A stretch of DNA of 42,282 nt from a bacterium (GCA_963656615.1 CAVKJF010000001.1:1-42282), one strand, 5' to 3'; numbered from the stretch's first letter, positions 4,788-42,282 are shown. Notes: generated by a model from the sequence alone, not told the origin. Program-made: numbers and translations.

Positions 4788-6065
4788 CTATATTTTCTTA
4801 TCATTTAAGCAGAATACAGCATATACAGGTATATATCTAACTTCTTTCTTTGTAGAAAAGTTATTCTCTGTTATACGGTATGCTTGCTGTGTTATATACT
4901 TCTTTATAAATACTGATAATGATTTAGCTTTAGACATACTTTTTGTTGCTATTTCAATTGGAATAATTTGACCTAGTCTATTTTGAATTACAAAGTTAAC
5001 TTCTGCTTTTCCTTCAGACTGATAGTAATATAATGAATATCCTGCTTCTACTAATGTTTTAGCAATATGATTTTCATATAATGTCTCTTTTATTTTCTCG
5101 TCTGAGGCAAATCGTTTTAAATTTAAATGTAGCATAGTAAATAGTAGACCATCATCTGGTAAGTATAATTTAAAGCTATCTGTTTCACGGCAACTACTTA
5201 ATGGTGATTTCACGTTTTTAATTTTGTAACTACGATATACTAATTGATTATTTACTAAGTAATTTATAGCAGTCTCATATTCTTTAGCTCTTTTTCCTGG
5301 ACCGATGCAACCATATTGAAATTTTTTATTTTCTTTTTTCAATTGATTAGGTATAGAGTTAATTACTTCTATGCCTCTTGGTATGTCAATTAAAACTTTA
5401 TTAAGACTTATTTCCTTTTTATATATATCAATTACTTTTTGTTTTATAGCGTCTATTTCATAAATTGTTTTGCCATCCAGATCGGCTTGAACTACTTCTG
5501 GTAGACCTCCAGTCATTAAATATTCTTGGAATAAATCTAAAGCAACTTTATGGAAAGGACATAATTTGTGTTTTGTATAAGACTCTCTTATTAGTTCTGC
5601 CAAGCTCTTTTCGCCTTTTGCCCAAAGATATTCTTCAAAGTCCATTTCGTTCATACCTTTAAATTGTAATTCTTCGCCTTTAAATTCATTTAGTCTTTCT
5701 CGACGTGATGTTATTGCAATAATATGATACTTACTGCGTTCACTTCCAAATAATTTTAAACCTTTAACTATGTCTAAGTTATCTAAGTTATCTAAAATAA
5801 TTAAAGTATCTTCTTTTAATATTGTTTCACCAGAGGTTAAAGATAAATTTAAGATGATTTTATCGATATTTTTTTCCTTGGCAAATAGTTCTATTATTTC
5901 ACCATTATTTTCTGTATTGAAATAAACTAAGTTTTTATATTCTTTTTTTCCAAAATTTAATACAGTAAATGTTTTACCAATTTGCTTAGGTCCATATAGT
6001 ATTAATGGCTTTCTTATTATATCTTTTTGCCATTTTTTAAAAAATTCTTCTATTTTTCGTTCCAT
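4788..6065 (-). CDS. AAA-family ATPase with DUF4143-type C-terminal domain
   Basis: Walker A GPKQIGKT and Walker B-like LIILDNLD. Length and layout match the AAA_14/DUF4143 (COG1373) family. A TTGACT-17-TATACT promoter lies at about 6100-6128 (minus strand). Confidence 0.75.
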
Positions 6066-6162: not shown

Positions 6163-6939
6163 TTAATTGTTTGTTGCTACTTTATTAAATTCTAAACGTA
6201 GTTTATCAGCTACGGTAACTATAAATTCTGAATTTGTTGGTTTAGCTTTATCAATATCTACGCTATGTCCGAAGATATCTTCCATTAGTTGCCAGTTACC
6301 TCTGTTCCAACTAACTTCGATAGCATGTCTTATTGCTCTTTCAACTCTAGATACTGTTGTTTCATATCTACCAGCAATTTCTGGATATAACTCTTTTGTT
6401 ATTCCACCTACTAATTCTGGCTTTTCATATACTAAAGTTATTCCTTCACGAATATATTGATAACCTTTTATATGAGATGGTACACCTAATTCGTGTAATG
6501 TATTAGTAATTGATTTTTGTAAGTTATTGTGATACAAATCAATACTTTTGCCTGCAAACTTTGTTCCCTCTCTTAATTCAATTATTCTTTTCTCTAGGTC
6601 AGCTAATTCAAATGGTTTTAAGATAAAATAACTTACTCCCATTTCTGATACTTTTCTAATCATATCTTGTGTATTATATGAAGTTAGGACTATAACATCT
6701 TTATCTATTTCCTTCTTTTTCATATGTTCTAATACAGCTATTCCATCTTTAACAGGCATAATCAAATCTAATAATATTATGTCGTACTCGTCTTTCTTTT
6801 TATCGGCTAACAGCATTCCTTCTGCTCCGTCGTATGCTGTTAAAGTTACATTTATATCAGCGTTATCACTGAAATATTCCTTAATCATTTCTACTAAGCT
6901 CTTGTTATCGTCAATGATTAATAAACGTGTTCTCTCCAT
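6163..6939 (-). CDS. spo0A: sporulation master regulator Spo0A
   Basis: Receiver domain (LLIIDDN...ILLDLIMP) plus the diagnostic Spo0A C-terminal domain ([37 protein letters not shown]). The start is at the 6th codon of the track ORF, where GAGGAG is 5 nt upstream. Confidence 0.92.
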
Positions 6940-7021
6940 CTTTTCTCCTCTCATATACTACCACGCATTTTAATTATATAACATAGTTCGATAAATTGAT
7001 AGAAAAAAAAAGGACAACTTT

Positions 7022-7028
7022 TGTCGAA
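7022..7028 (+). promoter_or_regulatory. perfect 0A-box heptamer TGTCGAA upstream of spo0A
   Basis: TGTCGAA lies at 7022-7028, about 85 nt upstream of the spo0A ATG. A one-mismatch copy (TATCGAA on minus, 6993-6987) lies next to a TATAAT. The site also overlaps a weak tpiA terminator hairpin. Confidence 0.3.
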
Positions 7029-7042
7029 AGTGTCTATTTTGT

Positions 7043-7735
7043 CTATTTTTCTATTTTATTAATAAGAAGTTGTATTTTGTCTAAATGAAGACTTAGGGCA
7101 CCGATAAGATATCCATCAACGATATTTTCTTTATCTAGTGTTTCAATATTTTCATCATTAACGCTGCCACCATATAAAATTAAATTGTTTGGATAGTACT
7201 CTTTTATATGATTAACTACTTCTTTTATCTCTTGACCTGATGGTATTATACCTGTACCAATGGACCAGGTTGGTTCATAAGCAATAATTATTTTTTCAAT
7301 GTTTTCAGGTGTTAAATTAGTAAATGCTTCTTTTAAATCATTTATAATAACATCTGATGCAACATTTGACTTTTCATTTTCACCAACACATAGTATTGGT
7401 GTAATGTCATTAGCTAATAATTGAGATATTTTTCTATTTGCATCTTGAGACGTTTCACAAAATAAATTTCTTCTTTCACTATGACCTACAAGAGAGTATT
7501 TAACATCAAGTGACTTTAGTTGTTCTGCAGATACTTCTCCTGTATATGAGCCTTTACCATAAGCACTAACATTTTGACTACCAAGTAGTATTCCTTCTAT
7601 ACTATTAGATAAATAAATATTGGAAGGAAATAAAATTATCTTAGTATCTTTATGTTGTAGATTTTTTAATTGTTCTTTGTATAAAGTAAATTCATCTTTT
7701 GTTAAATGACATTTATTATTAAGTGCTACTATCAT
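7043..7735 (-). CDS. tpiA: triosephosphate isomerase
   Basis: VGHSERR (catalytic His) and AYEPTWSIGTG (catalytic Glu). N-terminal ALNNK preserves the Asn/Lys pair. The start is at ATG 7735 (AAGGTGA SD 5 nt upstream); the track start at 7744 is a GTG inside that SD. Confidence 0.88.
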   Translation of the reverse strand: MIVALNNKCHLTKDEFTLYKEQLKNLQHKDTKIILFPSNIYLSNSIEGILLGSQNVSAYGKGSYTGEVSAEQLKSLDVKYSLVGHSERRNLFCETSQDANRKISQLLANDITPILCVGENEKSNVASDVIINDLKEAFTNLTPENIEKIIIAYEPTWSIGTGIIPSGQEIKEVVNHIKEYYPNNLILYGGSVNDENIETLDKENIVDGYLIGALSLHLDKIQLLINKIEK

Positions 7736-7736
7736 A

Positions 7737-8966
7737 TTATTCACCTTTTATTTTCTTTGTTATCATGGATATTATGCCAAATCTATCCTCATTCTCTTTA
7801 TCAATAAGAGCTCTTTTATATACTTCAAGAACTCTTTCAGCATAGCTTGCAGAACTACAATGTTCAGCTTGGATTCTAGCTTGATTATCATATTTTTCTA
7901 ACATAGATCTATCAGTATATAACATTAGTACTTTTTCAATGTATTCTTTTTCTGTTTCAAATATAAGACCATTCAATTCATTGGTAACTGTTCCTAGAAA
8001 TGATTCATCATTTATACATAATGGCACAACACTTGCAGCCATGGCTTCTATAACAGTTAGGCCTTGAGTTTCGGTAGTTGAGGCTGTTGCGAAAACATCG
8101 GCGCAATGGTAATAGAATGGCATTTCTTCCCAAGCTGCTTTTCCAGTAAATATAACATTTTTGCTTATACCTAAGTCAGTAGCAAGTTGTTCATAGTTTT
8201 CTTTATCTGGACCGTCTCCTACAATAACTAATTTTATATTAGAATGTTTTTCAACTATTTTTTTGTGGGCATTTAGTAAAAACTCAACGTTTTTTTCAGA
8301 AGCTAACCTTCCAACAAATAGTATGACAAAGTCTTTTTTCTGAAGATTTAATCTTTTCTTTAATGTTTGGACATAACTTTTATCCACATTTTCTGTGTAA
8401 AAACGTTCTACTTCTATTCCGGTTGGCACTATATGAATATTTTTTGTAAACTCGTATTTTTCTTTAAACAGTTTGTATATTTTGTTTGTTGGAACTATTA
8501 ATTCATGAGCTGTCTTATCACAATAGAATTTTGTTAAATACTCAACTATCTTTTTACTTGATTTATCAAAGTAACCATGAGTTATATAGTGAGTGTAGTC
8601 TTCATATAAAGTGTGATAAGTGTGGACTAATGGTATATCAAATTGTTTAGCTAATAAACGCGCAAGGATACCTATACCAAATTCGGTATGAGAATGAATT
8701 ACATCTAATTTCCAATTTTTCATAGTATTAATCATTGATAAAGGATAGATTCTACTAAGACGATAGTCATAAATACCAATAGGAATTCCGGGGACTCTTA
8801 CAATTCTTTCTTCTTCATCGTACTCATATTTTAAGGCGTTATCACTAACAGTAACAACATAAACAATGTGTCCCTTTTTTTCTAATGCTTTTTTAAGCAT
8901 CGCTACACTTGTTGATACTCCATTTATATATGGAGGATATGAATCTGTAAATAAACCTATTCGCAT
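7737..8966 (-). CDS. GT4-family glycosyltransferase, diacylglycerol glucosyltransferase-like (glycolipid synthase type)
   Basis: N-terminal MRIGLFTDSYPPYINGVSTSV and C-terminal TETQGLTVIEAMA (E-x7-E region) are typical of GT4 enzymes of the alMGS/CpoA type. Confidence 0.75.
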   Translation of the reverse strand: MRIGLFTDSYPPYINGVSTSVAMLKKALEKKGHIVYVVTVSDNALKYEYDEEERIVRVPGIPIGIYDYRLSRIYPLSMINTMKNWKLDVIHSHTEFGIGILARLLAKQFDIPLVHTYHTLYEDYTHYITHGYFDKSSKKIVEYLTKFYCDKTAHELIVPTNKIYKLFKEKYEFTKNIHIVPTGIEVERFYTENVDKSYVQTLKKRLNLQKKDFVILFVGRLASEKNVEFLLNAHKKIVEKHSNIKLVIVGDGPDKENYEQLATDLGISKNVIFTGKAAWEEMPFYYHCADVFATASTTETQGLTVIEAMAASVVPLCINDESFLGTVTNELNGLIFETEKEYIEKVLMLYTDRSMLEKYDNQARIQAEHCSSASYAERVLEVYKRALIDKENEDRFGIISMITKKIKGE

Positions 8967-8968
8967 AT

Positions 8969-9979
8969 TTAATCACTTTCCTTTTCAGTACTAAATAAGA
9001 AGCCACCTAAAATCATACCAAAATAGTATGTTATAAAACGCCAAACAATTAGTAAAGCATTTAGTAATACTGTTGGCATAAAATTACCAAAGAATTTTAC
9101 GAAACTATATTCTATTCCACCCGAAGCACCAGGAATTGGTACAAATGAGCCAACTAACAATACATAAGCTGATGAAGTTATAGCAGTCATTGGATTTAAA
9201 CTGGTGAAGTCATGAAGACCATACATAATAAATAATGGAATTATATATAGGCAAGTTAAGCCAATGAAGTTTATTAGCACTCCAAAGATAAATATTTTTC
9301 TTTTTCCTAATAAATCTTTAGAAACATCGTGAAATTCCTCTAGTTTTTCATTCCAGTATGCTTTGGCCTTTGGAATATTTTTTATAATTTTAATTTTTCC
9401 TAAGAAGGTAATTACCCAATTAGATACTTTACCAGTTATAGTTTTAGATAGCATTATAACGTATAAAGCTATAGCTACAATTACGTTGATTATAAAGCCT
9501 AGTAGTACTAAGTGTTGAAGTAAGGCTACTTTAGGGAATAGATTAAAAGTCCAATTGCAAGCTACCGCTATAACACCATAGATAACTAGAGCAGTTTGAT
9601 AAAATATGAAATTTTCGATGGTAACACTGGTTGCTTTGCTTACTTTTATTCCATGTTCAGCAATCATATATACTTCCATTGGTTGTCCGCCTGTAGAAAA
9701 TGGAGTTATACCATTAAAAAACTGAGTTATTATATTATGTTTTATAGCCTCTTTAAATGTTAATTTGTCTTTTTCATTTACACTTCTATATATTATATAA
9801 GCTTTTGAAACAATATATATAAAATATAATAGTATGGCTATTAAAAGATAAAAGAGATTTATTTTTGATAGTGTAACAACTATACTTCCAAGATTATCTT
9901 TTAAAAGAAAAAAGAGTACTATTATAGTAATTATTAATAAAATTATACTGTTTCTCTTAATACTTTTTATTGTTTCCAT
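8969..9979 (-). CDS. polytopic membrane protein, LPG-synthase-TM / flippase-like (UPF0104) family
   Basis: Multiple TM helices. FFNGITPFSTGGQPMEVYMI and PIPGASGGIEYSF resemble the conserved loops of the MprF flippase-like domain family. Confidence 0.55.
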   Translation of the reverse strand: METIKSIKRNSIILLIITIIVLFFLLKDNLGSIVVTLSKINLFYLLIAILLYFIYIVSKAYIIYRSVNEKDKLTFKEAIKHNIITQFFNGITPFSTGGQPMEVYMIAEHGIKVSKATSVTIENFIFYQTALVIYGVIAVACNWTFNLFPKVALLQHLVLLGFIINVIVAIALYVIMLSKTITGKVSNWVITFLGKIKIIKNIPKAKAYWNEKLEEFHDVSKDLLGKRKIFIFGVLINFIGLTCLYIIPLFIMYGLHDFTSLNPMTAITSSAYVLLVGSFVPIPGASGGIEYSFVKFFGNFMPTVLLNALLIVWRFITYYFGMILGGFLFSTEKESD

Positions 9980-10475
9980 CTAATAGTCCTTCCTTAGCAA
10001 GATAGCTATCTTTATCAACTAGATAAATATTAGTGCCATTATCTTCGCCTAGGTCTTCAAAGCCTGATTCTAGTACTGTTAGGGATGTTCTAGTATCAGA
10101 ACTACTAATATTTATAAATACTTCTTCCATTCCTAAACCTTTTATGGCATATGATGTTGCTGATTGTAACATTAATTTTTTAGCACTCTCATTCTTCGAA
10201 GGAAGAAGTGTTAAATAGCAAGACTTTATGTCTTTATAACAATCAAGCATACAACCGGATATTAGAGCAGAACTTTCTTCAAGAAATAAGAATTGTTCTA
10301 CTTCATTTGAAGTCCTTATATAATCATTATAACCAGATTCTGTATACTTATCCTTGGTAGCTTTTAGAGCGTGTGATACTCCAAGGTCTTGAAATGAGTC
10401 AGCTTCATAATTTTTGATAAGTTCAGTATGTCTGTTATCATAAGGATTTGCTATTAAAAGGCTTTTATTTGCCAT
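9957..10475 (-). CDS. hypothetical cytoplasmic protein (possibly acyltransferase/GNAT-like fold)
   Basis: 172-aa ORF with an AGGTGA SD 6 nt upstream, packed 10 nt after pgk. Its end overlaps the next gene by 23 nt. The fold guess rests only on the C-terminal pattern (AIKGLGMEEVFINI...LESGFEDLG). Confidence 0.4.
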   Translation of the reverse strand: MANKSLLIANPYDNRHTELIKNYEADSFQDLGVSHALKATKDKYTESGYNDYIRTSNEVEQFLFLEESSALISGCMLDCYKDIKSCYLTLLPSKNESAKKLMLQSATSYAIKGLGMEEVFINISSSDTRTSLTVLESGFEDLGEDNGTNIYLVDKDSYLAKEGLLDGNNKKY

Positions 10476-10485
10476 AAGAAGTCAC

Positions 10486-11664
10486 CTACTTTATTACTTC
10501 AATTCCTGGTAATTTCTTTCCTTCTAGATATTCAAGAGTTGCTCCTCCTCCAGTAGAGGCATGATATACTTTATCTTTATATCCAAGAGTTGCTGCAGCG
10601 GCTACAATATCACCACCACCTAAAATAGCTTTTATATTATTATCAACAAGGTATTTTAAAATTTCTTTTGTTCCTTCTTGATAATTTTCAAATTCATAGA
10701 CACCTAAAGGTCCATTCCATACTACTATTTTAGCATCTTTTAAGTAATTTTCATATAGTTCTGTTGTTTTTGGACCAATGTCTAGACCTAATTCATTATA
10801 TTCAAGTTCAGTTATGTCCTTAATTTTAATTGGTGTATCATTTGAATATTCTGTTGTTGCTTTAACATCAACTGGTAAAACTAGTTTTTCAGAATGGTTC
10901 TTTAACATTTCTGAACAGAAGTCTAGGCTTTCTTGATCAACTATTGAGTTTCCAACTTCGTATCCTTCAGCTTTTAAGAATGTAAATGCCATTCCACCAG
11001 CAATTAATATTTTATCAGCTTTAGTAACTAGGTTTTCAATCACACCTATTTTATCAGCAACTTTTGCACCACCTAATATTACAATAAATGGGTGTTCAGG
11101 ACTATTTAATTCACTTAAAGCATTTAATTCTTCTTCAATTAAGAAACCTATTGCTGATGTTTCTGGTAGATTAGTTGCTATACCAACATTTGAAGCATGA
11201 GCTCTATGTATTGTACCAAAGGCATCGTTAATAAATACGTCGCCAAGAGAAGCCCAGTATTTACCAAGTTCTTCATCATTAGAACTTTCCTTTTTACCGT
11301 CTAAATCTTCATATCTAGTGTTTTGAAGTAGAACAATATCTTTTTCTTTCATATTAGAAATAGCTTCTTCTACAGCTTGACCTGTCGTAACAGGAACAAA
11401 TGTTACTTTCTTATCTAATAATTCACTTAGACGAGTCGCAACTGGAGCTAAGTCATTTTTCTTTAAATCTTCCTCTTCTTTTACTCTACCAAGGTGTGAT
11501 AAAAGTATGACCTTAGCGTTATGTTCAAGGCAATAATTAATAGTTTTTAAACTAGCTTTGATTCTAGTATCGTCAATTATTTTTCCATCTTTAATAGGTA
11601 CATTAAAATCACATCTAATTATTACTTTCTTTCCTTCTATATTAATATCTTTTATAGTTTTCAT
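10486..11664 (-). CDS. pgk: phosphoglycerate kinase
   Basis: VIIRCDFNVP, LLSHLGR and GGGDIVAA motifs. 392 aa. Confidence 0.95.
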   Translation of the reverse strand: MKTIKDINIEGKKVIIRCDFNVPIKDGKIIDDTRIKASLKTINYCLEHNAKVILLSHLGRVKEEEDLKKNDLAPVATRLSELLDKKVTFVPVTTGQAVEEAISNMKEKDIVLLQNTRYEDLDGKKESSNDEELGKYWASLGDVFINDAFGTIHRAHASNVGIATNLPETSAIGFLIEEELNALSELNSPEHPFIVILGGAKVADKIGVIENLVTKADKILIAGGMAFTFLKAEGYEVGNSIVDQESLDFCSEMLKNHSEKLVLPVDVKATTEYSNDTPIKIKDITELEYNELGLDIGPKTTELYENYLKDAKIVVWNGPLGVYEFENYQEGTKEILKYLVDNNIKAILGGGDIVAAAATLGYKDKVYHASTGGGATLEYLEGKKLPGIEVIK

Positions 11665-32610: not shown

Positions 32611-33709
32611 TTATAACCCTCTTTTTAAACTTGCTTCAATAAAATCATCTAAATCTCCATCTAATACTTTAGAAACATTACTTGTTTCATAATTAGTACG
32701 GTGATCTTTTACTAGTGAATATGGATGCATTACATAACTTCTAATTTGTGAGCCAAACTCAATATTCATCTGGTCACCTTTTATTTGTTTTAATTCCTTT
32801 TCTTGTTCCTCATATTTTTTTAGTAATAATTTATTTCTTAAAACTTTCATCGCTTGTTCTTTATTTTGAATTTGACTACGTTCATTTTGACATGTTACTA
32901 CTATTTTAGTAGGTAAATGTGTTATTCTTACGGCTGAGTCTGTTGTATTTACTCCTTGTCCTCCACAACCTGATGAACGATAAACATCTATTTTTAAATC
33001 TTTTTCATCTATTTCTAGACTATTATCTTGTTCTATTTCTGGAGTTACTTCAATGGACGCAAAAGATGTATGTCGACGATTGTTAGAGTCGAATGGAGAT
33101 AATCTTACTAAACGATGAACTCCTTTTTCATTTTTTAAATATCCATAAGCATTCAAACCTTTTATAAGAAGTGAAGCACTTTTTATACCAGCTTCATCTC
33201 CTGCTTGATAATCTAATATTTCTATTTTATAGTTTTTCTTTTCACACCAGCGAGTATACATTCTATAAAGCATTAAAGCCCAGTCACATGCTTCTGTACC
33301 TCCGGCTCCAGAATGGATATCCATAATACAATTATTTTTGTCATACGGTCCCGATAATAGTAGAAGCATATTTAATTTTTCTAGCCTTTCTGGCATACCA
33401 ACAATAGATTCTTCTATTTGTTCAACTATTTCTTGATCAAAATCCAGTTTCATTAGTTCAATGAGTTCTAAATTTTCTTTAATACTATTAGCTATTTCTT
33501 CTATATTATCTATTTTTTCTTTGACACTAGAAATTTCTGATAAAACCTGATCTTTTCTTTCACGATCAGTCCAAAAAGATGGATCTTCAGTTTCTTTCTG
33601 AAGTTCTTTCAAATGTTCTTTTTCTTTATCGATGTCAAAGTGACCTCCATAAACTATTAACTTCTGATAAATATTTATTTAATGCTTGTTCCATTTCTTT
33701 TATTTCCAT
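32611..33709 (-). CDS. prfB: peptide chain release factor 2, expressed through programmed +1 frameshift
   Basis: Frame 0: ATG 33709, MEIKEMEQALNKYLSEVNSLWRSL, then in-frame TGA. The +1 frame continues DIDKEKEHLKELQKETEDP... into the 333-aa track ORF. That ORF carries the SPF (RLSPFD) and GGQ (SGCGGQGVN) motifs. Confidence 0.93.
33634..33648 (-). promoter_or_regulatory. prfB +1 frameshift site (internal SD GGAGG + CUU UGA C)
   Basis: Minus strand reads tGGAGGtcaCTTTGAC. GGAGG is at 33648-33644, CTT at 33640-33638 and TGA at 33637-33635. Confidence 0.9.
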
Positions 33710-33858
33710 TTTTATCTTCCTTATTATATTGTTTATTTTTTCCTCGTTTTATACTTATTGTATATAGTATTATGTTAACATATTTTTTTATTTAAGACAA
33801 TTATTCATATTTTAAAAATTTTTGTATAGATTATTTATTTTCTGCATATATTATTAGT

Positions 33859-35806: not shown

Positions 35807-36607
35807 TTATTCTCCTTTTATTTTGCTCTGTTGCATTTGTTTTGTGTATACTTTGTAGCTATCGTCAGGCTCTACAACACCATAGTCATGAATATTTTCA
35901 GCCAGTGCACCATTTAAGTCATAGAAAGTTGGCCAAGCAGCAGGACTAGTAGCAATTTTTATAGAAAGATCTGTATTACATCTTCTAGTGATATAGCCAT
36001 TTATTGCTTGATATGACGCTAAAGGCATTCTTTTGTCTATTTCAAATATTAGTCCATAATAAGAATCTATGTTTAGTGCTTTTTTCGTTTTTGTTGCTAA
36101 ATCAACAGCATTTATAAAGGGAATTTTTAGGCTGTCAGGATCAAACCAAGACTGATCACCCTGTAAGTATTCAACATAATAATTTGAATACATTTTCCTT
36201 GATTCTTCTAGAATACTTTTAAGTTCTTCTAATGACCTAGCTTGTGTATGCTGTTTATGTCCGTATAATCTATTTATTCTTTCTAGCAAATCATTTATTT
36301 TTGACATTGAAGTATTTAATTTTCCTTGTTCTAATATTCTTCTAATAATACTTTCTGAAATGGAAAAGTCTAAAAATTCATTTGCAATTAGTCTAACAGT
36401 TCCAGAATTAATATTTTCATTTATTGGTTTACTTAAAGGTAGAGAAAAGTCTTCCATGTAGATGGCAACTGGCGAAGCAGAATCTGTTAATATTGGATAT
36501 GCCCTTTCTAAATCTTTTAAAAACCTATGTCTACCTTCAGTATTATAACCATAGATAAACTGATGGCGGTTTTCTTCCATAATTTGTTTTCTTGTATATT
36601 CGTTCAT
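35807..36607 (-). CDS. hypothetical protein (possibly a degenerate P-loop NTPase-like fold lacking Walker A)
   Basis: 266 aa with no recognisable catalytic motif. YYGLIFEIDKRMP resembles a Walker-B strand, but no GxxxxGK[ST] is present. The stop overlaps the SD of the next gene. Confidence 0.3.
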   Translation of the reverse strand: MNEYTRKQIMEENRHQFIYGYNTEGRHRFLKDLERAYPILTDSASPVAIYMEDFSLPLSKPINENINSGTVRLIANEFLDFSISESIIRRILEQGKLNTSMSKINDLLERINRLYGHKQHTQARSLEELKSILEESRKMYSNYYVEYLQGDQSWFDPDSLKIPFINAVDLATKTKKALNIDSYYGLIFEIDKRMPLASYQAINGYITRRCNTDLSIKIATSPAAWPTFYDLNGALAENIHDYGVVEPDDSYKVYTKQMQQSKIKGE

Positions 36608-36683
36608 AACCTCACCCAGGAATTAGTATACCATGCATAGTCTTAAATATAAAGTTTTCAATATTATAATTTTATGTTTTTCT

Positions 36684-37604
36684 TTAAATTTGTCCGGAAT
36701 ATTTATATAATTTCTTGTTTACTGGTGAATATTCTACTTTTGATAAGTCTTTTGACTGTTTTGCTGCCAAAGACCTTGTTAGATACATTGCTTGAACAAG
36801 CATTTGAAAATCATCTATAACTTGATCTGTTGATTTTGATTCAATAACTATTACATCTTGGTAGTATTGTTTTAATTCTTCTAACATTATCTTATCAAAT
36901 TCAGTTCCTCTATTGAAATAGATGGCATTACTTTGTTGAACGGTAGATAAAGTCGAACGACCATGGCAGTATGAATACTTATCATGTACTATAGGTATAC
37001 CTATGCCTGACTCTACTAATGTTGACTCTAAATACTTGGCAGCAGTTTTTGTATCGTAGCCTGAAAATATTTCATAAATGTTGCTTGGCTCAAATGAAAA
37101 ATCTTTTTCTATAATTAGGTCTAATAATTTATTATCTTCTCCTTCTAAATAATAGTCCATTAAAATACTAATTGGAATTAGAGTTGCTCCTAAAGATATA
37201 AAACTTCTTTCTTTATCTATTGTTGTTTGATATTGCAGATTTACTACGTCTTCAGATGGTGATGGATTATTAGATAATAAATACTTTTTTAAGTAATTAT
37301 TAAATGATAACTCAACACCATAGTTATTTCCAGAATAACTACAAGAAATGACATTTTTAAAACCAGAAGTTCCTCGATATAAGAAATCTCTTGGTTCACA
37401 GTTGATACTTATTATGCCATTTTTTTGATTTAGCACTTTACTGCCAAATTCACTTACAACACTAGATCCACCTACACCAGATATGATACTGGCATCTTTT
37501 ATTTTTAGAAGTTCACTTCTTATGAACTCTAAATCCGTTTTGTCCAACGCATCTTCTACTCTCCTTTTCAAATATTCAAAATTAATTTTCATGTTCTTTT
37601 CCAT
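36684..37604 (-). CDS. double SIS (sugar isomerase/phosphosugar-binding) domain-like protein
   Basis: First half: IISGVGGSSVVSEF and ISCSYSGNNYGVE (SIS G-x-G-x-S and S-x-SG-x-T/N patterns). Second half: IFSGYD...AAKYLESTLVESG...HDKYSYCHGRSTL, resembling the second SIS of the GlmS/AgaS/FrlB type. Confidence 0.5.
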   Translation of the reverse strand: MEKNMKINFEYLKRRVEDALDKTDLEFIRSELLKIKDASIISGVGGSSVVSEFGSKVLNQKNGIISINCEPRDFLYRGTSGFKNVISCSYSGNNYGVELSFNNYLKKYLLSNNPSPSEDVVNLQYQTTIDKERSFISLGATLIPISILMDYYLEGEDNKLLDLIIEKDFSFEPSNIYEIFSGYDTKTAAKYLESTLVESGIGIPIVHDKYSYCHGRSTLSTVQQSNAIYFNRGTEFDKIMLEELKQYYQDVIVIESKSTDQVIDDFQMLVQAMYLTRSLAAKQSKDLSKVEYSPVNKKLYKYSGQI

Positions 37605-37645
37605 AAAAAAATCCTCCTCAAGTTCAATATAACTTGAGAGGAGGA
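37605..37645 (-). terminator. strong intrinsic terminator whose 3' arm contains the SD of the next gene
   Basis: Minus RNA: UCCUCCUCUCAAGUU-auauug-AACUUGAGGAGGA, 13 bp with one bulge, followed by U7 (37611-37605) and then directly the ATG at 37604. Confidence 0.75.
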
Positions 37646-37655
37646 AATATTTCGT

Positions 37656-38258
37656 CTACTCATACTTTTCATTTAACAATTCGTAAGTTATAATTCTTTT
37701 CAATTCAAAATGCCTAATGTCTTGTTTCTTTTCACAGAAGGCGGCGCAGTACCAACCGTTTTGAAACAAAAACATTTCTGCAGGATCAATTACTCTTTCG
37801 TTTTCTCCCTTGTTGTAAGAATAATAACGAATCTTTACTTTTCTTTTTTCTTTTATGGCTCTTGTTAGTAAATTAAATTTCTTTTGAGTTTCATCTTCTA
37901 ATTTAAATTTATTTGTATCTTGTTTTGAGCCAATGTAGATTCCTTTTATTTTTTCTTGAAGATTTAGAAGTTTTTCTTTTTGTTTTGGATTAGTTTCATA
38001 TTCAATATAGCTATCTAGCATTTTATAGTCGTCTTCTTTAAATTTTCTAATAGGTACTTTAACTGGTTTTCTTAAAAAGTAACCACCATATGGTCCTAAT
38101 ATAGACTCAATATATATACCTGCTTTTTCTAAGTCCTCTTTATATACTCTAATCATTCTTTCGGAAACTTCCAAAATATCGGATAATTCATTGATACTAT
38201 ACTTACGTCCAGAGTTCAATAATTCTAATAAAGTTATGGCATTAGATACTTTTGACAT
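37656..38258 (-). CDS. HTH + WYL-domain transcriptional regulator (YafY/BrxR/CapW-like, short form)
   Basis: N-terminal wHTH (YSINELSDILEVSERMIRVYKEDLEKAG). C-terminal WYL domain (KVKIRYYSYNKGENERVIDPAEMFLFQNGWYCAAFC...IRHFELKRI). Confidence 0.85.
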   Translation of the reverse strand: MSKVSNAITLLELLNSGRKYSINELSDILEVSERMIRVYKEDLEKAGIYIESILGPYGGYFLRKPVKVPIRKFKEDDYKMLDSYIEYETNPKQKEKLLNLQEKIKGIYIGSKQDTNKFKLEDETQKKFNLLTRAIKEKRKVKIRYYSYNKGENERVIDPAEMFLFQNGWYCAAFCEKKQDIRHFELKRIITYELLNEKYE

Positions 38259-38266
38259 AATTATAC

Positions 38267-38512
38267 TTATTTTATAACACTTTCTATTTTTTGTAGTTCA
38301 AAACGATATTTTTGTTTTATATCTGGATACTTTTCATGATCTACTTCACTTAAAAACATATCCATAGGTCTTACCCATAGGTCATTGCTTCCATATAGAG
38401 CTCTATAGACAACACACTCTTCGCCAGTCTCTGAATATTTAGCAGTATCAACAACTAAGTAATAGTTTCCTTTAAAGTGTTTATATATGCCATTTATTTT
38501 TACTTTATTCAT
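38267..38512 (-). CDS. DUF1653-family small protein
   Basis: 81 aa. [14 protein letters not shown]...[28 protein letters not shown] matches the DUF1653 pattern from memory. Confidence 0.7.
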
Positions 38513-38686: not shown

Positions 38687-38714
38687 AAGACGAATCGGAA
38701 TTCGTCTTGTTTTT
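38687..38714. terminator. terminator closing the SPASM operon
   Basis: AAGACGAAT (38687-38695), loop cgga, ATTCGTCTT (38700-38708), then GTTTTT. It lies 24 nt downstream of the deacetylase stop. Confidence 0.7.
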
Positions 38715-38737: not shown

Positions 38738-39490
38738 TTAATATGGTAATAATAATCTAATTTTAAATTTCCAGAATGGCATAGATGATGATATGTTTAA
38801 TCTTGGAATATGATATTTATCATCTGTTTGTTTTGCTTTGCGATGTTCTTTATTAGGGCCAAAGGTAAATGCTAGACGATAGTTATTTTCTTTTAAAGCC
38901 TGTTCTAAATTTTTACTGACATGACCATATGGATATGCAAAATATTTGGTTTTGAGAGTTCCTGCTTGTTTTTTGAAATCCGCATTTATTTTATCATAAT
39001 CTAATAAATAATCTTCTTCATGATGTAGGTCATAAGAATGTGAAGCAAATTCTATATTAGGATATTCCTTTTTTGATTTTTCTATTATTTCTTTATCCAT
39101 ATAATTCTTGTTTCCACCATTATAATTTACTCCCATGTAAAAGACTACTGCATTAAAATTATATTTCTTCAAGATTGGAAAAGCTAGTTCATAATTAGAA
39201 TAATAGCCATCATCCATAGTTATTAGTATTGACTTTCTTGGTAGATGACATGTTTTATTTATGAAACACTCCATTTCTTTTAGAGTTATTGTTTTATAAT
39301 GATGCCTTTTTAAATATTTCATTTGTTGTTCGAAGTTGGTTATTTCCATTTGCATTTCATTGGTTGACTCACTATTAGTAAAATCATGATATCCTAGAAC
39401 GGTTACAGTTTGTTTCTTATAAATTATAATTAAAGTTATTGTCACTACTAAAAATAGTAACAATATTGATATTATTAATCTTTTTTTCAT
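38738..39490 (-). CDS. membrane-anchored polysaccharide deacetylase (NodB homology / CE4)
   Basis: N-terminal TM helix, ILITMDDGYYSNY (TFDDG-type motif 1), FASHSYDLH (H-S-x-x-H motif 2) and RLAFTF. The start is at ATG 39490 (GGAG SD 6 nt upstream); ATG 39502 has no SD. Confidence 0.85.
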   Translation of the reverse strand: MKKRLIISILLLFLVVTITLIIIYKKQTVTVLGYHDFTNSESTNEMQMEITNFEQQMKYLKRHHYKTITLKEMECFINKTCHLPRKSILITMDDGYYSNYELAFPILKKYNFNAVVFYMGVNYNGGNKNYMDKEIIEKSKKEYPNIEFASHSYDLHHEEDYLLDYDKINADFKKQAGTLKTKYFAYPYGHVSKNLEQALKENNYRLAFTFGPNKEHRKAKQTDDKYHIPRLNISSSMPFWKFKIRLLLPY

Positions 39491-39501
39491 AATTTTCTCC
39501 A

Positions 39502-40521
39502 TTAATTATTGTCTTCTAAAATCCATTCTTGAAAATATTTGATTTTTGTATGGCAATAAGAACATTCGCCATCAGCAATATTTATTGATGCACCACAGTT
39601 ATGGCACTTTATAAGATGTTCTTTGTCATTAAGTTTTAATGGTTCAGTATTAAGTTTTTTCATTAAATATTTCTGGTTCATAGTTTTTGATATTATTCTA
39701 TTATTTTCGTAGTAGACAATTCTTACATCAGCAACTACTTCAACATATAAGTTGTTATTTTTAGTTGATTCTTGAAAACTTATGTAATCTAGAACATCAT
39801 AGTCTATTACATTTGCTTCGCTATAGTATTTTTTTCTTACTTCATAATTGAAATTATTGAAGAATTTTTTCTTATCTATTTTTGTTCTGTTCCAAAAATC
39901 AATTTGTTTTTGATTTTGTTTATCTTTATATATTTTTATTGGTGTTAAGACTATGTAGGCATCTACTATATAAAATAGATAATATAAAATGGCCGCTAGA
40001 ATTAGACCATAGATAAATATTTTGGAAATATCATAACTGTTGAATGTTCTACCAGTTGTTTTTATAAATACATAACTTAGTATAAAACTAACTATTAAAT
40101 CTATTATGGCTGTTACTATTCTATAGGTATTACTTTTTAATACTCTATCATAATGGTATTTACTTCCTAAATCTTTATTTGTATAGTCAATGTTGTAGTA
40201 AGTTCGACAATATGGACAACCTTCTAAAAAGTCTTTTAGTTTAGAATGCATTCCACAATTGTGACAGGTATATTCGGTATTTTCAGCATCTTTTGAGATG
40301 AAAGTGTACTCGATTCTGGAGTCAAAGTTTTTTTCAACATGTAATAATTGATTATTTATGTAGTAATCTTTTTCACATCTTATACCATTAGAAATATCAT
40401 CATTATTGGAGTTATCTGTATTACGTTCTAGTATTGTGTTGCCAACAATGTATTTAGTTTTAATATTAATTCCATATTTATTTAGTTTTTTAATATGATA
40501 ATTGTCAGATAATAATGGCAT
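39502..40521 (-). CDS. two-TM membrane protein with two CxxC...CxxC zinc-ribbon motifs
   Basis: CHNCGMHSKLKDFLEGCPYC and CHNCGASINIADGECSYC, with two hydrophobic helices between them. The start is at ATG 40521 (GGAG SD 8 nt upstream). The 38-codon His/Thr/Ile-rich extension in the ORF track overlaps the upstream gene. Confidence 0.7.
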   Translation of the reverse strand: MPLLSDNYHIKKLNKYGINIKTKYIVGNTILERNTDNSNNDDISNGIRCEKDYYINNQLLHVEKNFDSRIEYTFISKDAENTEYTCHNCGMHSKLKDFLEGCPYCRTYYNIDYTNKDLGSKYHYDRVLKSNTYRIVTAIIDLIVSFILSYVFIKTTGRTFNSYDISKIFIYGLILAAILYYLFYIVDAYIVLTPIKIYKDKQNQKQIDFWNRTKIDKKKFFNNFNYEVRKKYYSEANVIDYDVLDYISFQESTKNNNLYVEVVADVRIVYYENNRIISKTMNQKYLMKKLNTEPLKLNDKEHLIKCHNCGASINIADGECSYCHTKIKYFQEWILEDNN

Positions 40522-40531
40522 ACTTATTCTC

Positions 40532-40885
40532 CTATCTATTATTATTGTTATTGTTGTTATTGTTATTATTATTGTTTGATGATGATCCACCATATGATGA
40601 ACCTGAAGATGATGGTGTATAGTGCAAAATAACATTAAAAATCGTATTAGACATTATGATTCCATCAATAGCACTGTTTATACAATTTAAATTGAGCATA
40701 GTAATGTTACTTCCGGAAATAAGTTTTATAAGATTTCCTGAACAGTTAACTTCTCCAGTTGGATTATTAGCTAGAAATTGATAAATTTGTTCTAATTCTT
40801 CACCAGTTAAGTTATAGTATCTTGTTAAATCTACGCATCTTTTTTGCCTTATCAATTCTTCATATGTTTCTGGTTCTTTATTCAT
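40532..40885 (-). CDS. 117-aa protein with Ser/Gly/Tyr-rich, poly-Asn C-terminal tail; translationally coupled to the SPASM enzyme
   Basis: AAGGAG SD 8 nt upstream. Its ATG overlaps the upstream stop (ATGAATAA). Three Cys (C17, C48, C68). Tail: TPSSSGSSYGGSSS-N13-R. Confidence 0.65.
   Translation of the reverse strand: MNKEPETYEELIRQKRCVDLTRYYNLTGEELEQIYQFLANNPTGEVNCSGNLIKLISGSNITMLNLNCINSAIDGIIMSNTIFNVILHYTPSSSGSSYGGSSSNNNNNNNNNNNNNR
40538..40576 (-). repeat. (AAY)13 trinucleotide tract encoding poly-Asn
   Basis: Plus strand reads att att att gtt att gtt gtt att gtt att att att gtt. Confidence 0.9.
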
Positions 40886-42282
40886 TTTTTAACTCCTTAT
40901 CTATATAGTAGAATTCTATATTTTGAAATGGTAAATTTATAGCTTGTATGTGATAGTAGGCATTTTCTTTTTGTTTTAAATAATGATAATCTCTTAAAGC
41001 TGAAGTTGTAAAGAAAATATTATTTGTATTATCCTTGGAAAAGCTATTTTTATATTCTTTAAAAAGATTGGTGATGTCATATGAATAATAATCTTTTTTT
41101 ATTGATTTTTGTTCATCTAAAACGCCTTTATATACTTGAAGTGTTGCGATATGTCGTTGCTTAGTTCTATTTTCATCTCCATATGTGACCAAGTTTCCTG
41201 ATAGTAACATGATATATAAAGAATTATTTTCTGGATAATCGCATTGTTCTTGGATGATATTTTTTTTCATATAAATTGTTACTTTACTTTTTGGTGTTAT
41301 GTAGATTATATCATTAATTTTCTTTGTTATTTGAGATGATAACTTATACTCTATACCATCTAATTCAAGAATAAAAGCATGATTACTATAAATATATTTT
41401 AGCTTTTCATCATTTGAAATTATTTCTTCTAATGATGGATAATTAGTTAATTTCCTATTAGGAATATACTTAGTTATGTCAGTTATACGCATTTTCAAAA
41501 GATAATTGTAGACAGTTTCATCATTATACTCATCCTTTTGATAGTTACGGTCTTTATATAGTTCTTGTTGAAGCTTACAAGTATAACTTTTATTAGAATT
41601 ATAAGTGTTTTTAACAAATGGACAACCAGTTTTACATAGGTATAAGTATTGACATTTTTCACATTCGTCATTGAATGGTAACCTGTTGTGATTTAGAAAT
41701 ATTTTGTTTTTAGCAGTTAATAATATTTTTTCCACAGAATCTGTGTATATGTTGCCATAATAATAGTCTTTATTTTTTTGTCCTCTTACACAAGAATATA
41801 TATCTCCATTTTTTTCTAGTAAAAAGAACTTTTCTCCACAGTTATCACAGTTAGTACAGTACTCTGGGCCAAATTCATCGAACCAAGGTCCAGAAACTCC
41901 AAAATCTAAGTCAGTACCATCAAATTCTTCATGCATTCTTTTATAGAATTTTACTTGTTCTTCTTCAGTCATATGGTGCAGAATACCATTAGAATTATAG
42001 TCAAAGCCTATCATAAAATTAAAATCATTCATATCTAGGCAAGTATTTTTATGAAGATATTTAATGTCTTTTATAATTTCATCAATATGATTATAGTGTT
42101 CTTTAAATATGGTTGAGGAAACTTTCTTCTTATTTGGTATGTCCTTCATAAGATTAATGTTTTCAAGTATTTTATTTAATGTTTTTTGATTTCCTTTCGT
42201 AACACGATATTCATCATGTAATATAAATGGTAAATCTAGACTTCCTGAAACTGATACATTGAATTCTTTAATAGTATCAATG
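40878..42282 (-). CDS. SPASM-domain enzyme (presumably radical SAM; N-terminus outside the window) with ~230-aa unknown C-terminal extension
   Basis: The frame stays open from 42149 to the window edge (IDTIKEFNVSVSGSLDLPFILHDEYRVTKGNQKTLNKILENINL-MKD...). The canonical SPASM spacing is present: NGDIYSC (G-x4-C), CEKCQYLYLCKTGC (C-x2-C-x5-C-x3-C) and a trailing SYTC. Confidence 0.75.
   Translation of the reverse strand, partial: IDTIKEFNVSVSGSLDLPFILHDEYRVTKGNQKTLNKILENINLMKDIPNKKKVSSTIFKEHYNHIDEIIKDIKYLHKNTCLDMNDFNFMIGFDYNSNGILHHMTEEEQVKFYKRMHEEFDGTDLDFGVSGPWFDEFGPEYCTNCDNCGEKFFLLEKNGDIYSCVRGQKNKDYYYGNIYTDSVEKILLTAKNKIFLNHNRLPFNDECEKCQYLYLCKTGCPFVKNTYNSNKSYTCKLQQELYKDRNYQKDEYNDETVYNYLLKMRITDITKYIPNRKLTNYPSLEEIISNDEKLKYIYSNHAFILELDGIEYKLSSQITKKINDIIYITPKSKVTIYMKKNIIQEQCDYPENNSLYIMLLSGNLVTYGDENRTKQRHIATLQVYKGVLDEQKSIKKDYYSYDITNLFKEYKNSFSKDNTNNIFFTTSALRDYHYLKQKENAYYHIQAINLPFQNIEFYYIDKELKNE

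Follow-up and report, generated by a model that had tools for sequence, protein, structure and literature searches.

A radical SAM/SPASM enzyme family and its asparagine-tailed neighbor proteins: candidate enzyme–substrate pairs in bacteria and phages

Which molecule is modified by a radical S-adenosylmethionine (SAM) enzyme whose operon was described as lacking a short Cys-rich precursor? This question is raised by the end of a 42,282-nucleotide (nt) stretch of bacterial DNA (GCA_963656615.1, CAVKJF010000001.1:1-42282; in the following called the window), where an initial annotation had placed a radical SAM enzyme with a SPASM domain at the head of a tightly coupled four-gene operon on the minus strand. 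We found that the gene following the enzyme gene encodes a 117-amino acid (aa) protein with a C-terminal Asn run, and that proteins with such a terminus accompany this enzyme family across distant taxa. Judging by these sequence relationships, the enzyme and the 117-aa protein probably form an enzyme–substrate pair in which the C-terminal Asn run is modified. The following features are central to this reading:

40878..42282, minus strand: 3′ part (1.4 kb) of the gene for the radical SAM/SPASM enzyme, with 467 of about 583 residues in the window
41574..41861, minus strand: SPASM auxiliary Fe-S cluster domain of the enzyme (window residues ~141-236; TIGR04085, PF13186)
40881..41561, minus strand: C-terminal domain of the enzyme, ~227 aa, the proposed substrate-docking domain
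40532..40885, minus strand: gene of the 117-aa partner, the proposed substrate, with a folded N-terminal domain, a Ser/Gly linker, poly-Asn and a terminal Arg
40538..40576, minus strand: run of 13 Asn codons, AAC and AAT interspersed, followed by AGA (Arg) and TAG, as read from the sequence

Gene neighborhoods were collected by exact-protein look-ups and a scan of one genome per species, and evaluated by open reading frame (ORF) calls and phmmer comparison. In all family loci with sequence, a same-strand neighbor of the enzyme gene encodes a protein with a C-terminal Asn run; in the window, this gene ends in N13-R. For a background count, we considered the 1514 ORFs of at least 70 aa within 60 family loci and asked for at least three consecutive Asn in the last 16 residues. 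Such a terminus was present in 55 ORFs, 54 of which are same-strand neighbors of the enzyme gene (in phage loci, at a distance of up to two genes upstream); the 55th is a frameshifted fragment of the enzyme gene. Such pairs occur in gut Bacilli, Lachnospiraceae, Erysipelotrichaceae, Bacteroidales, Gamma-, Beta- and Epsilonproteobacteria as well as Archangium (Myxococcota).

The partner gene lies directly after the enzyme gene in the cellular loci, with the exception of L034, where it is found two genes upstream. The cellular partners are 105–150 aa long and consist of a folded domain of ~90 residues, a linker, 9–15 Asn and one final residue (R for most Firmicutes, G for Proteobacteria, Bacteroidales and Archangium). 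In the window, the tail reads SSSGSSYGGSSSN13R and contains no Cys, consistent with the initial annotation in that a short Cys-rich precursor is missing. In finding no precursor, it passed over this 117-aa protein, whose poly-Asn tail is conserved across phyla and which is the enzyme's one universal partner. The 117-aa protein belongs to no Pfam or NCBIfam family. AlphaFold2 predicted a compact domain of two helices and five strands for residues 1–90, with a predicted local distance difference test (pLDDT) score >90, and disorder for the Ser/Gly linker and the Asn run. For the folded domain, there was no structural match in the PDB or among the BFVD viral structures.

Once the Asn run had been cut from the partner proteins, a profile built from the remainder yielded 149 homologs, every one of them named "hypothetical". 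Among the 120 homologs listed, 94 possess a run of at least five Asn, directly followed by R in 38 and by G in another 38 cases, and the 26 without a run are mostly fragments. The codons within the run alternate irregularly between AAT and AAC in all 30 distinct loci, which range from 22% to 71% GC; at 69–71% GC, the Archangium and Rhodocyclaceae genes contain four or five AAT codons. This mixture of codons points to selection on the peptide combined with avoidance of slippage-prone repeats. Together, the run-free profile, the codons and the background count show that the Asn run is selected at the protein level and is not a product of AT-rich composition.

The enzyme frame runs from position 42281 to the TAA at 40878-40880 over 468 codons without an internal stop. 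Because it is stop-free up to the window edge, the Met at 42149 is internal and the gene is cut by the edge, as the initial annotation had concluded. The radical SAM core had been expected beyond the edge, and it is located there in the closest full-length relative (P0001, 583 aa), which is 96% identical over the whole visible part and carries the CxxxCxxC motif at residues 18–25 (CNMCCKYC; C18-x3-C22-x2-C25). This answers the doubt raised earlier that a radical SAM cluster motif might be missing upstream. With P0001 as the full-length stand-in, the core scored 36.1 bits for PF04055 against a cut-off of 29.5.

For the SPASM domain, we looked for the pattern C-x9-15-G-x4-C ... C-x2-C-x5-C-x3-C ... 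C, which corresponds to two auxiliary clusters, and for a score above the cut-off. The previously noted SPASM signature is readable in the window protein as YCTNCDNC...NGDIYSC, then CEKCQYLYLCKTGC, then SYTC, and both models scored above their cut-offs (TIGR04085 44.3 bits against 27, PF13186 23.4 against 21.5). In an alignment of ten sequences with 30–88% identity, the Cys residues of the CxxxCxxC motif are invariant, and so are the SPASM Cys residues at P0001 positions 258, 264, 280, 323, 326, 332, 336 and 351. The visible 467 residues match models of the anaerobic sulfatase maturase (anSME) type from about model position 105 onward. Full-length relatives range from 577 to 592 aa and are named "radical SAM protein", "SPASM domain-containing protein" or "hypothetical protein" in their sources. 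By its motifs and profile scores, the window enzyme can be assigned to the radical SAM superfamily with a SPASM domain.

A large C-terminal part without an assignable domain had been noticed before, and this description holds. The last ~227 residues gave no family match in Pfam, NCBIfam, PADLOC or PDB sequences; a profile search of the latter matched in the anSME part only. The AlphaFold2 model of this domain, based on a 72-sequence alignment (pLDDT 84.6, predicted template modeling score 0.77), is mostly beta with flanking helices, and Foldseek found no match to it in the PDB (best E 6.7e-3, TM-score ≤0.32). Searched alone against 1.84 billion representative proteins, the domain yielded 103 matches and was found solely as a fusion to this radical SAM/SPASM core: all full-length matches are proteins of 588–616 aa with the domain at their C-terminus, and the shorter ones are taken to be gene fragments. 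Its invariant polar residues (YGD..R.K..H, TT, HY and N..YH.Q..N.P in the alignment of 30–88% identity) are all present in the window protein, with the signature YGD..R.KQ.H / NN...TT..R..HY...N..YH.Q..NLPF. The phage protein cluster phrog_1802 covers the full length of the enzyme including this domain (E 3.6e-39 for P0001, E 2.4e-80 for the Campylobacter copy). The family combining radical SAM core, SPASM and C-terminal domain comprises phrog_1802 and ~100 representative clusters, and the window protein is a member of it.

A separate branch of the family is associated with phages. The enzymes from Campylobacter and Helicobacter are 32–35% identical, with the C-terminal domain included, and are encoded within tail modules, both in Mu/P2-like prophages and in Campylobacter phage CAM-P21, in which the enzyme is annotated just as "hypothetical protein" (phage-branch loci: L033, L035, L038, L041, L089 (MW462221.2 28053-29810) and L093-L106). 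The gene order is baseplate, tail fiber (PF12571 N-terminus), a 210-aa protein without assigned function, enzyme, DUF1353, a second fiber-like protein and sheath. The Campylobacter and Helicobacter phage tail-module loci contain no small Asn-tailed protein. The tail fibers in these modules end in ...APSGSTNNNNY, ...GSSNNNNY, ...STGNNF, ...SMGNNF or ...SCNNNNGG. With an Asn-tailed small protein in the cellular loci and an Asn-ended fiber in the phages, the C-terminal Asn run on a neighboring protein is the common denominator of all branches.

Three large viral contigs from IMG/VR (L098, L102 and L103; 94–258 kb), which may represent Campylobacter jumbo-type phages, encode a protein of 84–109 aa just upstream of the enzyme (5260-5514, 5208-5534 and 5205-5534, respectively). 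These proteins end in ...NNNGNNNNSCSGGW or ...SNNNNNN(N)LAGNV. A protein of up to 1000 aa that precedes them ends in ...HGNNNS, in L102 and, as a 127-aa ORF, in L103. Phages CP220 and CPt10 are reported to carry 11–12 radical SAM genes, which are left unexplained (PMC2853527).

In the mechanism that we propose, the radical SAM/SPASM enzyme would use a 5′-deoxyadenosyl radical to abstract hydrogen from Asn residues of the tail, possibly repeatedly. The ~227-residue C-terminal domain would dock the carrier protein, and the Asn run would reach the active site by way of the flexible Ser/Gly linker, perhaps over several rounds. The enzyme lacks an N-terminal recognition element of the type (RRE) known from peptides made on ribosomes and modified after translation (RiPPs), as its radical SAM motif starts at residue 18; there was no PqqD match among the operon proteins, and neither the C-terminal domain nor the small protein gave an RRE-like match in Foldseek. 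From the lack of an N-terminal RRE, we infer that the C-terminal domain takes over substrate recognition, while the Asn run would be the modified site. By analogy, two types of chemistry are plausible, abstraction of the C-alpha hydrogen followed by epimerization to D-Asn, or abstraction at C-beta leading to a cross-link or oxidation. Thioether links are excluded by the absence of Cys from the tail, and the absence of a universally conserved aromatic residue disfavors cyclophane or Trp links as the general reaction. In phages, the target of the enzyme would be the short Asn run at the end of the tail-fiber protein, and the modified run would be part of the fiber tip.

Seen as a whole, the family may stand for an undescribed class of ribosomal protein modification, in which homopolymeric Asn tails would undergo repeated radical chemistry guided by a new docking domain, on a dedicated carrier protein of ~100–150 aa in bacteria of at least five phyla and on the tip of a tail fiber in phages. 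The product would be a new kind of modified poly-Asn structure, such as a ladder of cross-linked or D/L-alternating Asn, and would serve a structural or adhesive purpose. This wider picture we regard as a serious possibility that falls somewhat short of being probable.

The remaining features of the operon in the window are:

39502..40521, minus strand: zinc-ribbon membrane protein of 339 aa, with two zinc ribbons and a two-helix hairpin
38738..39502, minus strand: NodB/CE4-type deacetylase of 254 aa, membrane-anchored (PF01522)
38687..38708, minus strand: intrinsic terminator with a 9-bp stem, bidirectional, from a terminator scan; end of the operon

The tight coupling described for these genes is visible at each junction. 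The stop codon of the enzyme gene overlaps the start of the 117-aa gene (ATGAATAA, 40878-40885), the next start at 40521 follows 10 nt after that gene (GAGAATAAGT, after AGGAG), and the third and fourth genes have one base in common (TAATG at 39502). By this arrangement, the operon genes are translationally coupled. The third gene was correctly read as encoding a double zinc-ribbon protein with two transmembrane (TM) segments: the ribbons are formed by C86/C89/C102/C105 and C306/C309/C320/C323, there are two hydrophobic spans, and profile searches gave only weak zinc-ribbon/HypA matches. For the fourth gene, the assignment as NodB deacetylase agrees with a PF01522 score of 59.2 bits against a cut-off of 23.1; its identification as a PgaB or IcaB equivalog was rejected (99.5 bits against 321.9 and 70.4 against 248). 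The terminator predicted at the operon end coincides with a stem-loop at 38687-38708; in total, the scan of the region yielded four terminator-like sites compared with 0.6 expected from shuffles. A mechanically called ORF of the zinc-ribbon gene extends 38 codons upstream (window 40522-40635, minus strand; MLFCTIHHH...TIIITITTITIII). This extension is only the poly-Asn codon run in another frame, and the gene truly begins with the ATG at 40521, which follows AGGAG; ORF calls in L024 and L029 are lengthened by the same out-of-frame artefact.

In Firmicutes, the gene order is a membrane protein with leucine-rich repeat (LRR_5) and zinc-ribbon domains, the enzyme, the small protein and the membrane protein with the double zinc ribbon. 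Gut "uncultured Bacilli", Clostridium sp. CAG:465, Erysipelotrichaceae and Lachnospiraceae show this arrangement, with enzyme identities as low as 53% (L020), and the 339-aa zinc-ribbon protein is kept with the enzyme in Firmicutes only, over the same range. The LRR_5/zinc-ribbon gene (305–728 aa) ends 8 nt before the start of the radical SAM gene in all Firmicute relatives with upstream sequence. It is also present in L090, whose enzyme is 96% identical to that of the window, and is itself preceded there by a 190-nt gap. By this synteny, the window operon almost certainly begins with an LRR gene just beyond the window edge, and the enzyme, previously thought to head the operon, would come second. 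The deacetylase was found in the window, L090 and L010 only, its slot being taken elsewhere by a 321-aa protein without assigned function or by a helix-turn-helix (HTH) protein on the opposite strand. It is a lineage-specific passenger and not a conserved part of the operon. Hence, the four-gene set does not stand as a unit: the neighborhood survey supported the pair of enzyme and Asn-tailed protein and, in Firmicutes, the zinc-ribbon protein, whereas the deacetylase is confined to these three loci. The coupling to LRR_5 and zinc-ribbon membrane proteins suggests an envelope-associated role in gut Firmicutes, where these proteins might hold the modified product at the envelope or make use of it there.

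Two further copies of the Firmicute operon deserve mention. In L037 (CP091739.1, a 1.53-Mb chromosome from a metagenome-assembled genome (MAG)), the LRR, enzyme, small protein and zinc-ribbon genes at 6300-11100 are ~87% identical and broken into many short ORFs, reflecting either long-read assembly frameshifts or a decaying operon. L092 (IMGVR_UViG_3300029664_000120, 44.9 kb) is classed as viral by IMG/VR and carries a gut-type LRR/enzyme/Asn-tailed/zinc-ribbon operon with an enzyme of 65% identity; the contig may be a prophage cargo region or a chromosomal fragment that was misclassified.

LRR and zinc-ribbon proteins were not found in the loci from Bacteroidales, Gamma-, Beta- and Epsilonproteobacteria or Archangium, nor in those of phages. 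In Proteobacteria, the neighbors are variable and include GGDEF/EAL proteins, S9 peptidases, a kinase and a GNAT; only small membrane proteins without a Pfam family (clusters c3 and c8) are recurrent. Upstream of the enzyme, a protein of ~150–200 aa with an N-terminal two-helix hairpin is encoded in L025 (7431-7937), L028 (7537-7998) and L030 (7412-8011). A protein of ~250–277 aa with one TM helix at each end occurs in L027 (10221-10964), L034 (7177-7986), L024 (10042-10860) and L029 (4403-5236). The Proteobacterial small membrane proteins may be functional analogs of the Firmicute zinc-ribbon membrane proteins.

The window itself is ordinary chromosome with prfB, uvrA, uvrB, pgk, a PcsB-like hydrolase and dinB-like genes, and is not a prophage. 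Its nearest genome records are gut MAGs labeled uncultured Bacilli, Clostridium sp. CAG:465 and the 1.53-Mb "Clostridium sp." MAG chromosome. We noted a programmed +1 frameshift in prfB (window 33634-33715, minus strand), in which a short ORF starting with the ATG at 33707 ends in CTT TGA C (33634-33640), with a Shine-Dalgarno-like GGAGG at 33644-33648; the mechanical ORF 32611-33612 starts at TTG only because of this frameshift. As the frameshift occurs at TGA, TGA is a stop codon in this organism. Downstream of the operon, a block at 35807-38512 (minus strand) is conserved in L001, L002 and L005, the enzymes of which are 79–89% identical. It encodes a DUF1653 protein (81 aa), an HTH-WYL regulator (200 aa; PADLOC WYL E 2e-31), a 306-aa protein without a family, a 266-aa weakly ORC/CDC6-like protein and an ASCH-APH fusion (432 aa), and could be a regulator-plus-effector, defense-like module.

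Several observations weigh against the enzyme–substrate reading. There is no protease or exporter beside the pair of enzyme and Asn-tailed protein in the loci examined. In the phages, the Asn run is short, with 2–5 residues, and a homology between small protein and phage fiber that had been suspected by eye (a "hydrophobic-[DN]-G ... aromatic" hairpin) was dropped, because hhalign gave a probability of 2% for the small-protein domain against the fiber C-termini; only the tail is therefore shared. No known SPASM cross-link chemistry maps directly onto a tail without Cys or a universally conserved aromatic residue. Finally, the partner is a folded protein of ~90 residues and not a short leader, so it could be an accessory factor, such as a chaperone, scaffold or regulator, with the LRR_5 protein, the zinc-ribbon protein or a non-protein metabolite as the actual substrate. 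A well-folded domain is indeed unlike typical leader peptides, the Firmicute operon always carries two further proteins, and for an enzyme without a recognizable RRE a separate helper is plausible. However, the Asn-tailed protein persists in Bacteroidales, Proteobacteria and Myxococcota, where the LRR and zinc-ribbon proteins are absent, and the phages lack the small protein, yet have an Asn run on the neighboring tail fiber, which fits the run as target better than the domain as helper. We therefore consider an accessory role unlikely.

A function in anti-phage defense, abortive infection or a mobile conflict system, with the enzyme and the membrane proteins as sensor and effector, would match the patchy spread across phyla and the small modules with membrane proteins, as well as the WYL regulator and ORC/CDC6-like gene nearby in the window and the HNH nuclease and methyltransferase beside the Psychromonas copy. 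Yet PADLOC-DB 2.0 returned nothing above noise for any of the four operon proteins (E about 6e-3 for two of them), the matching WYL regulator lying outside the operon in a block that is merely syntenic in close relatives. Moreover, the surroundings in the window are housekeeping genes (prfB, uvrA, uvrB, pgk), and a branch of the family inside a structural tail module of phages is not suggestive of host defense; such a function is quite improbable. It is very improbable that the enzyme is of the sulfatase-maturase type or, as raised by the initial annotation, of an envelope-modifying type and acts together with the deacetylase on a component of the cell wall or spore. NCBIfam and PDB both gave anSME as the best match, and the NodB deacetylase is translationally coupled in the window, but the anSME model scored 60–82 bits against a cut-off of 349, the loci read contain no sulfatase gene and the deacetylase is limited to three closely related loci. 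Asn runs are common in AT-rich proteomes, and the window has 29% GC, so one might see in the run a meaningless low-complexity tract that adjoins the enzyme by coincidence. This is hardly credible, given that the run persists with mixed codons at 57–71% GC, was recovered by a profile that excludes it, and that 54 of the 55 Asn-ended ORFs are neighbors of the enzyme.

Unusual cross-links and stereo-inversions in ribosomal peptides stem chiefly from radical SAM/SPASM enzymes, and to our knowledge, each new SPASM enzyme–substrate pairing has so far brought new chemistry. Here, a homopolymeric Asn core, a folded carrier domain and a fused docking domain unmatched in the PDB form a combination that was not seen before. 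Human-gut Bacilli are rich in this family, contributing hundreds of near-identical clusters (some from Hadza gut samples), and further members come from environmental Proteobacteria and Campylobacter phages. Should the fiber tip indeed be modified by the phage enzyme, a virion protein would undergo radical post-translational chemistry, which is rare, and host recognition or fiber stability would be affected.

No curated family naming the enzyme or its partner was present in Pfam 2025, NCBIfam release 20 or PADLOC, and a full-text literature search, with subscription-only papers outside its scope, found no published description of such an enzyme/poly-Asn system. The initial annotation could match the operon to no described system; indeed, the enzyme fits no described RiPP class, every NCBIfam equivalog remaining far below its cut-off. 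The maturase families tried and rejected on these grounds were anSME (models TIGR03942, NF010308 and NF010321; TIGR03942 59.7 bits for the window fragment and 81.9 for P0001 against 349.45; NF010308 60 against 484), PapB (P0001 71 against 340), DynA (P0001 81 against 450), the mycofactocin maturase MftC (P0001 29 against 265; E 6e-7), DarE and the cyclophane formers; a ScfB-related model scored 40 bits against 855.

Among the known systems, anSME resembles the window enzyme in combining a radical SAM core with a full two-cluster SPASM domain and in acting on a protein, not a small molecule. Its structure (PDB 4k36) is the only solved relative by sequence (E 3e-13), covering profile positions 18–373 only. 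Unlike the window family, which adds ~227 residues, anSME ends after the SPASM domain at 363–370 residues. A sulfatase gene was not among the called neighbors in L001-L008, L090 or the distant loci examined, and the partner lacks the C/S-x-P/A-x-R motif.

The SPASM maturases of RiPPs (PapB/ranthipeptides, DynA/dynobactin, DarE/darobactin and GrrM/YhhB) share weak but significant similarity in hidden Markov model comparisons (E 1e-13 to 1e-23) and a similar layout, in which the enzyme gene adjoins a ribosomal substrate gene and the C-terminal core is modified. DynA and the three-residue cyclophane enzymes functionalize the beta-carbon of Asn among other residues, and DynA, PapB and anSME all act at beta-carbons. 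In contrast to these systems, the core here is neither Cys-rich nor of the aromatic-x-x type but a homopolymer of 9–15 Asn, the "leader" is a folded domain of ~90 residues, there is no protease or exporter, and instead of an N-terminal RRE the enzyme has an extra C-terminal domain. In mycofactocin (MftC/MftA) and pyrroloquinoline quinone (PqqE/PqqA) biosynthesis, a SPASM enzyme likewise acts on a small co-encoded precursor, at its extreme C-terminus or at a defined motif; these systems, however, need a separate PqqD/MftB helper and a peptidase, and their targets are Val-Tyr or Glu/Tyr and not Asn runs.

For repeated chemistry on an Asn run, the proteusin epimerases of the PoyD/OspD type and the epipeptide epimerase YydG, which abstract C-alpha hydrogens repeatedly along a peptide, offer a possible precedent. 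Polytheonamide precursors are Asn-rich, and their Asn becomes D-Asn. No NCBIfam or Pfam match of the enzyme to the PoyD/OspD or YydG families appeared, and the NHLP/Nif11-leader type of precursor and its gene context differ from the window operon. Closest in extent is phrog_1802 ("radical SAM domain-containing protein", category "other"), whose full-length match to the enzyme means that the family already exists as an unannotated phage protein cluster; it comes without a function or a link to Asn tails, and the window copy is chromosomal, not phage-borne. A SPASM maturase encoded beside its ribosomal substrate is thus of a well-known general kind. What is new are the particulars, namely a homopolymeric core of Asn, a folded carrier, a novel domain fused to the enzyme and a version on phage tail fibers, and the chemistry, too, has a substantial chance of being new.

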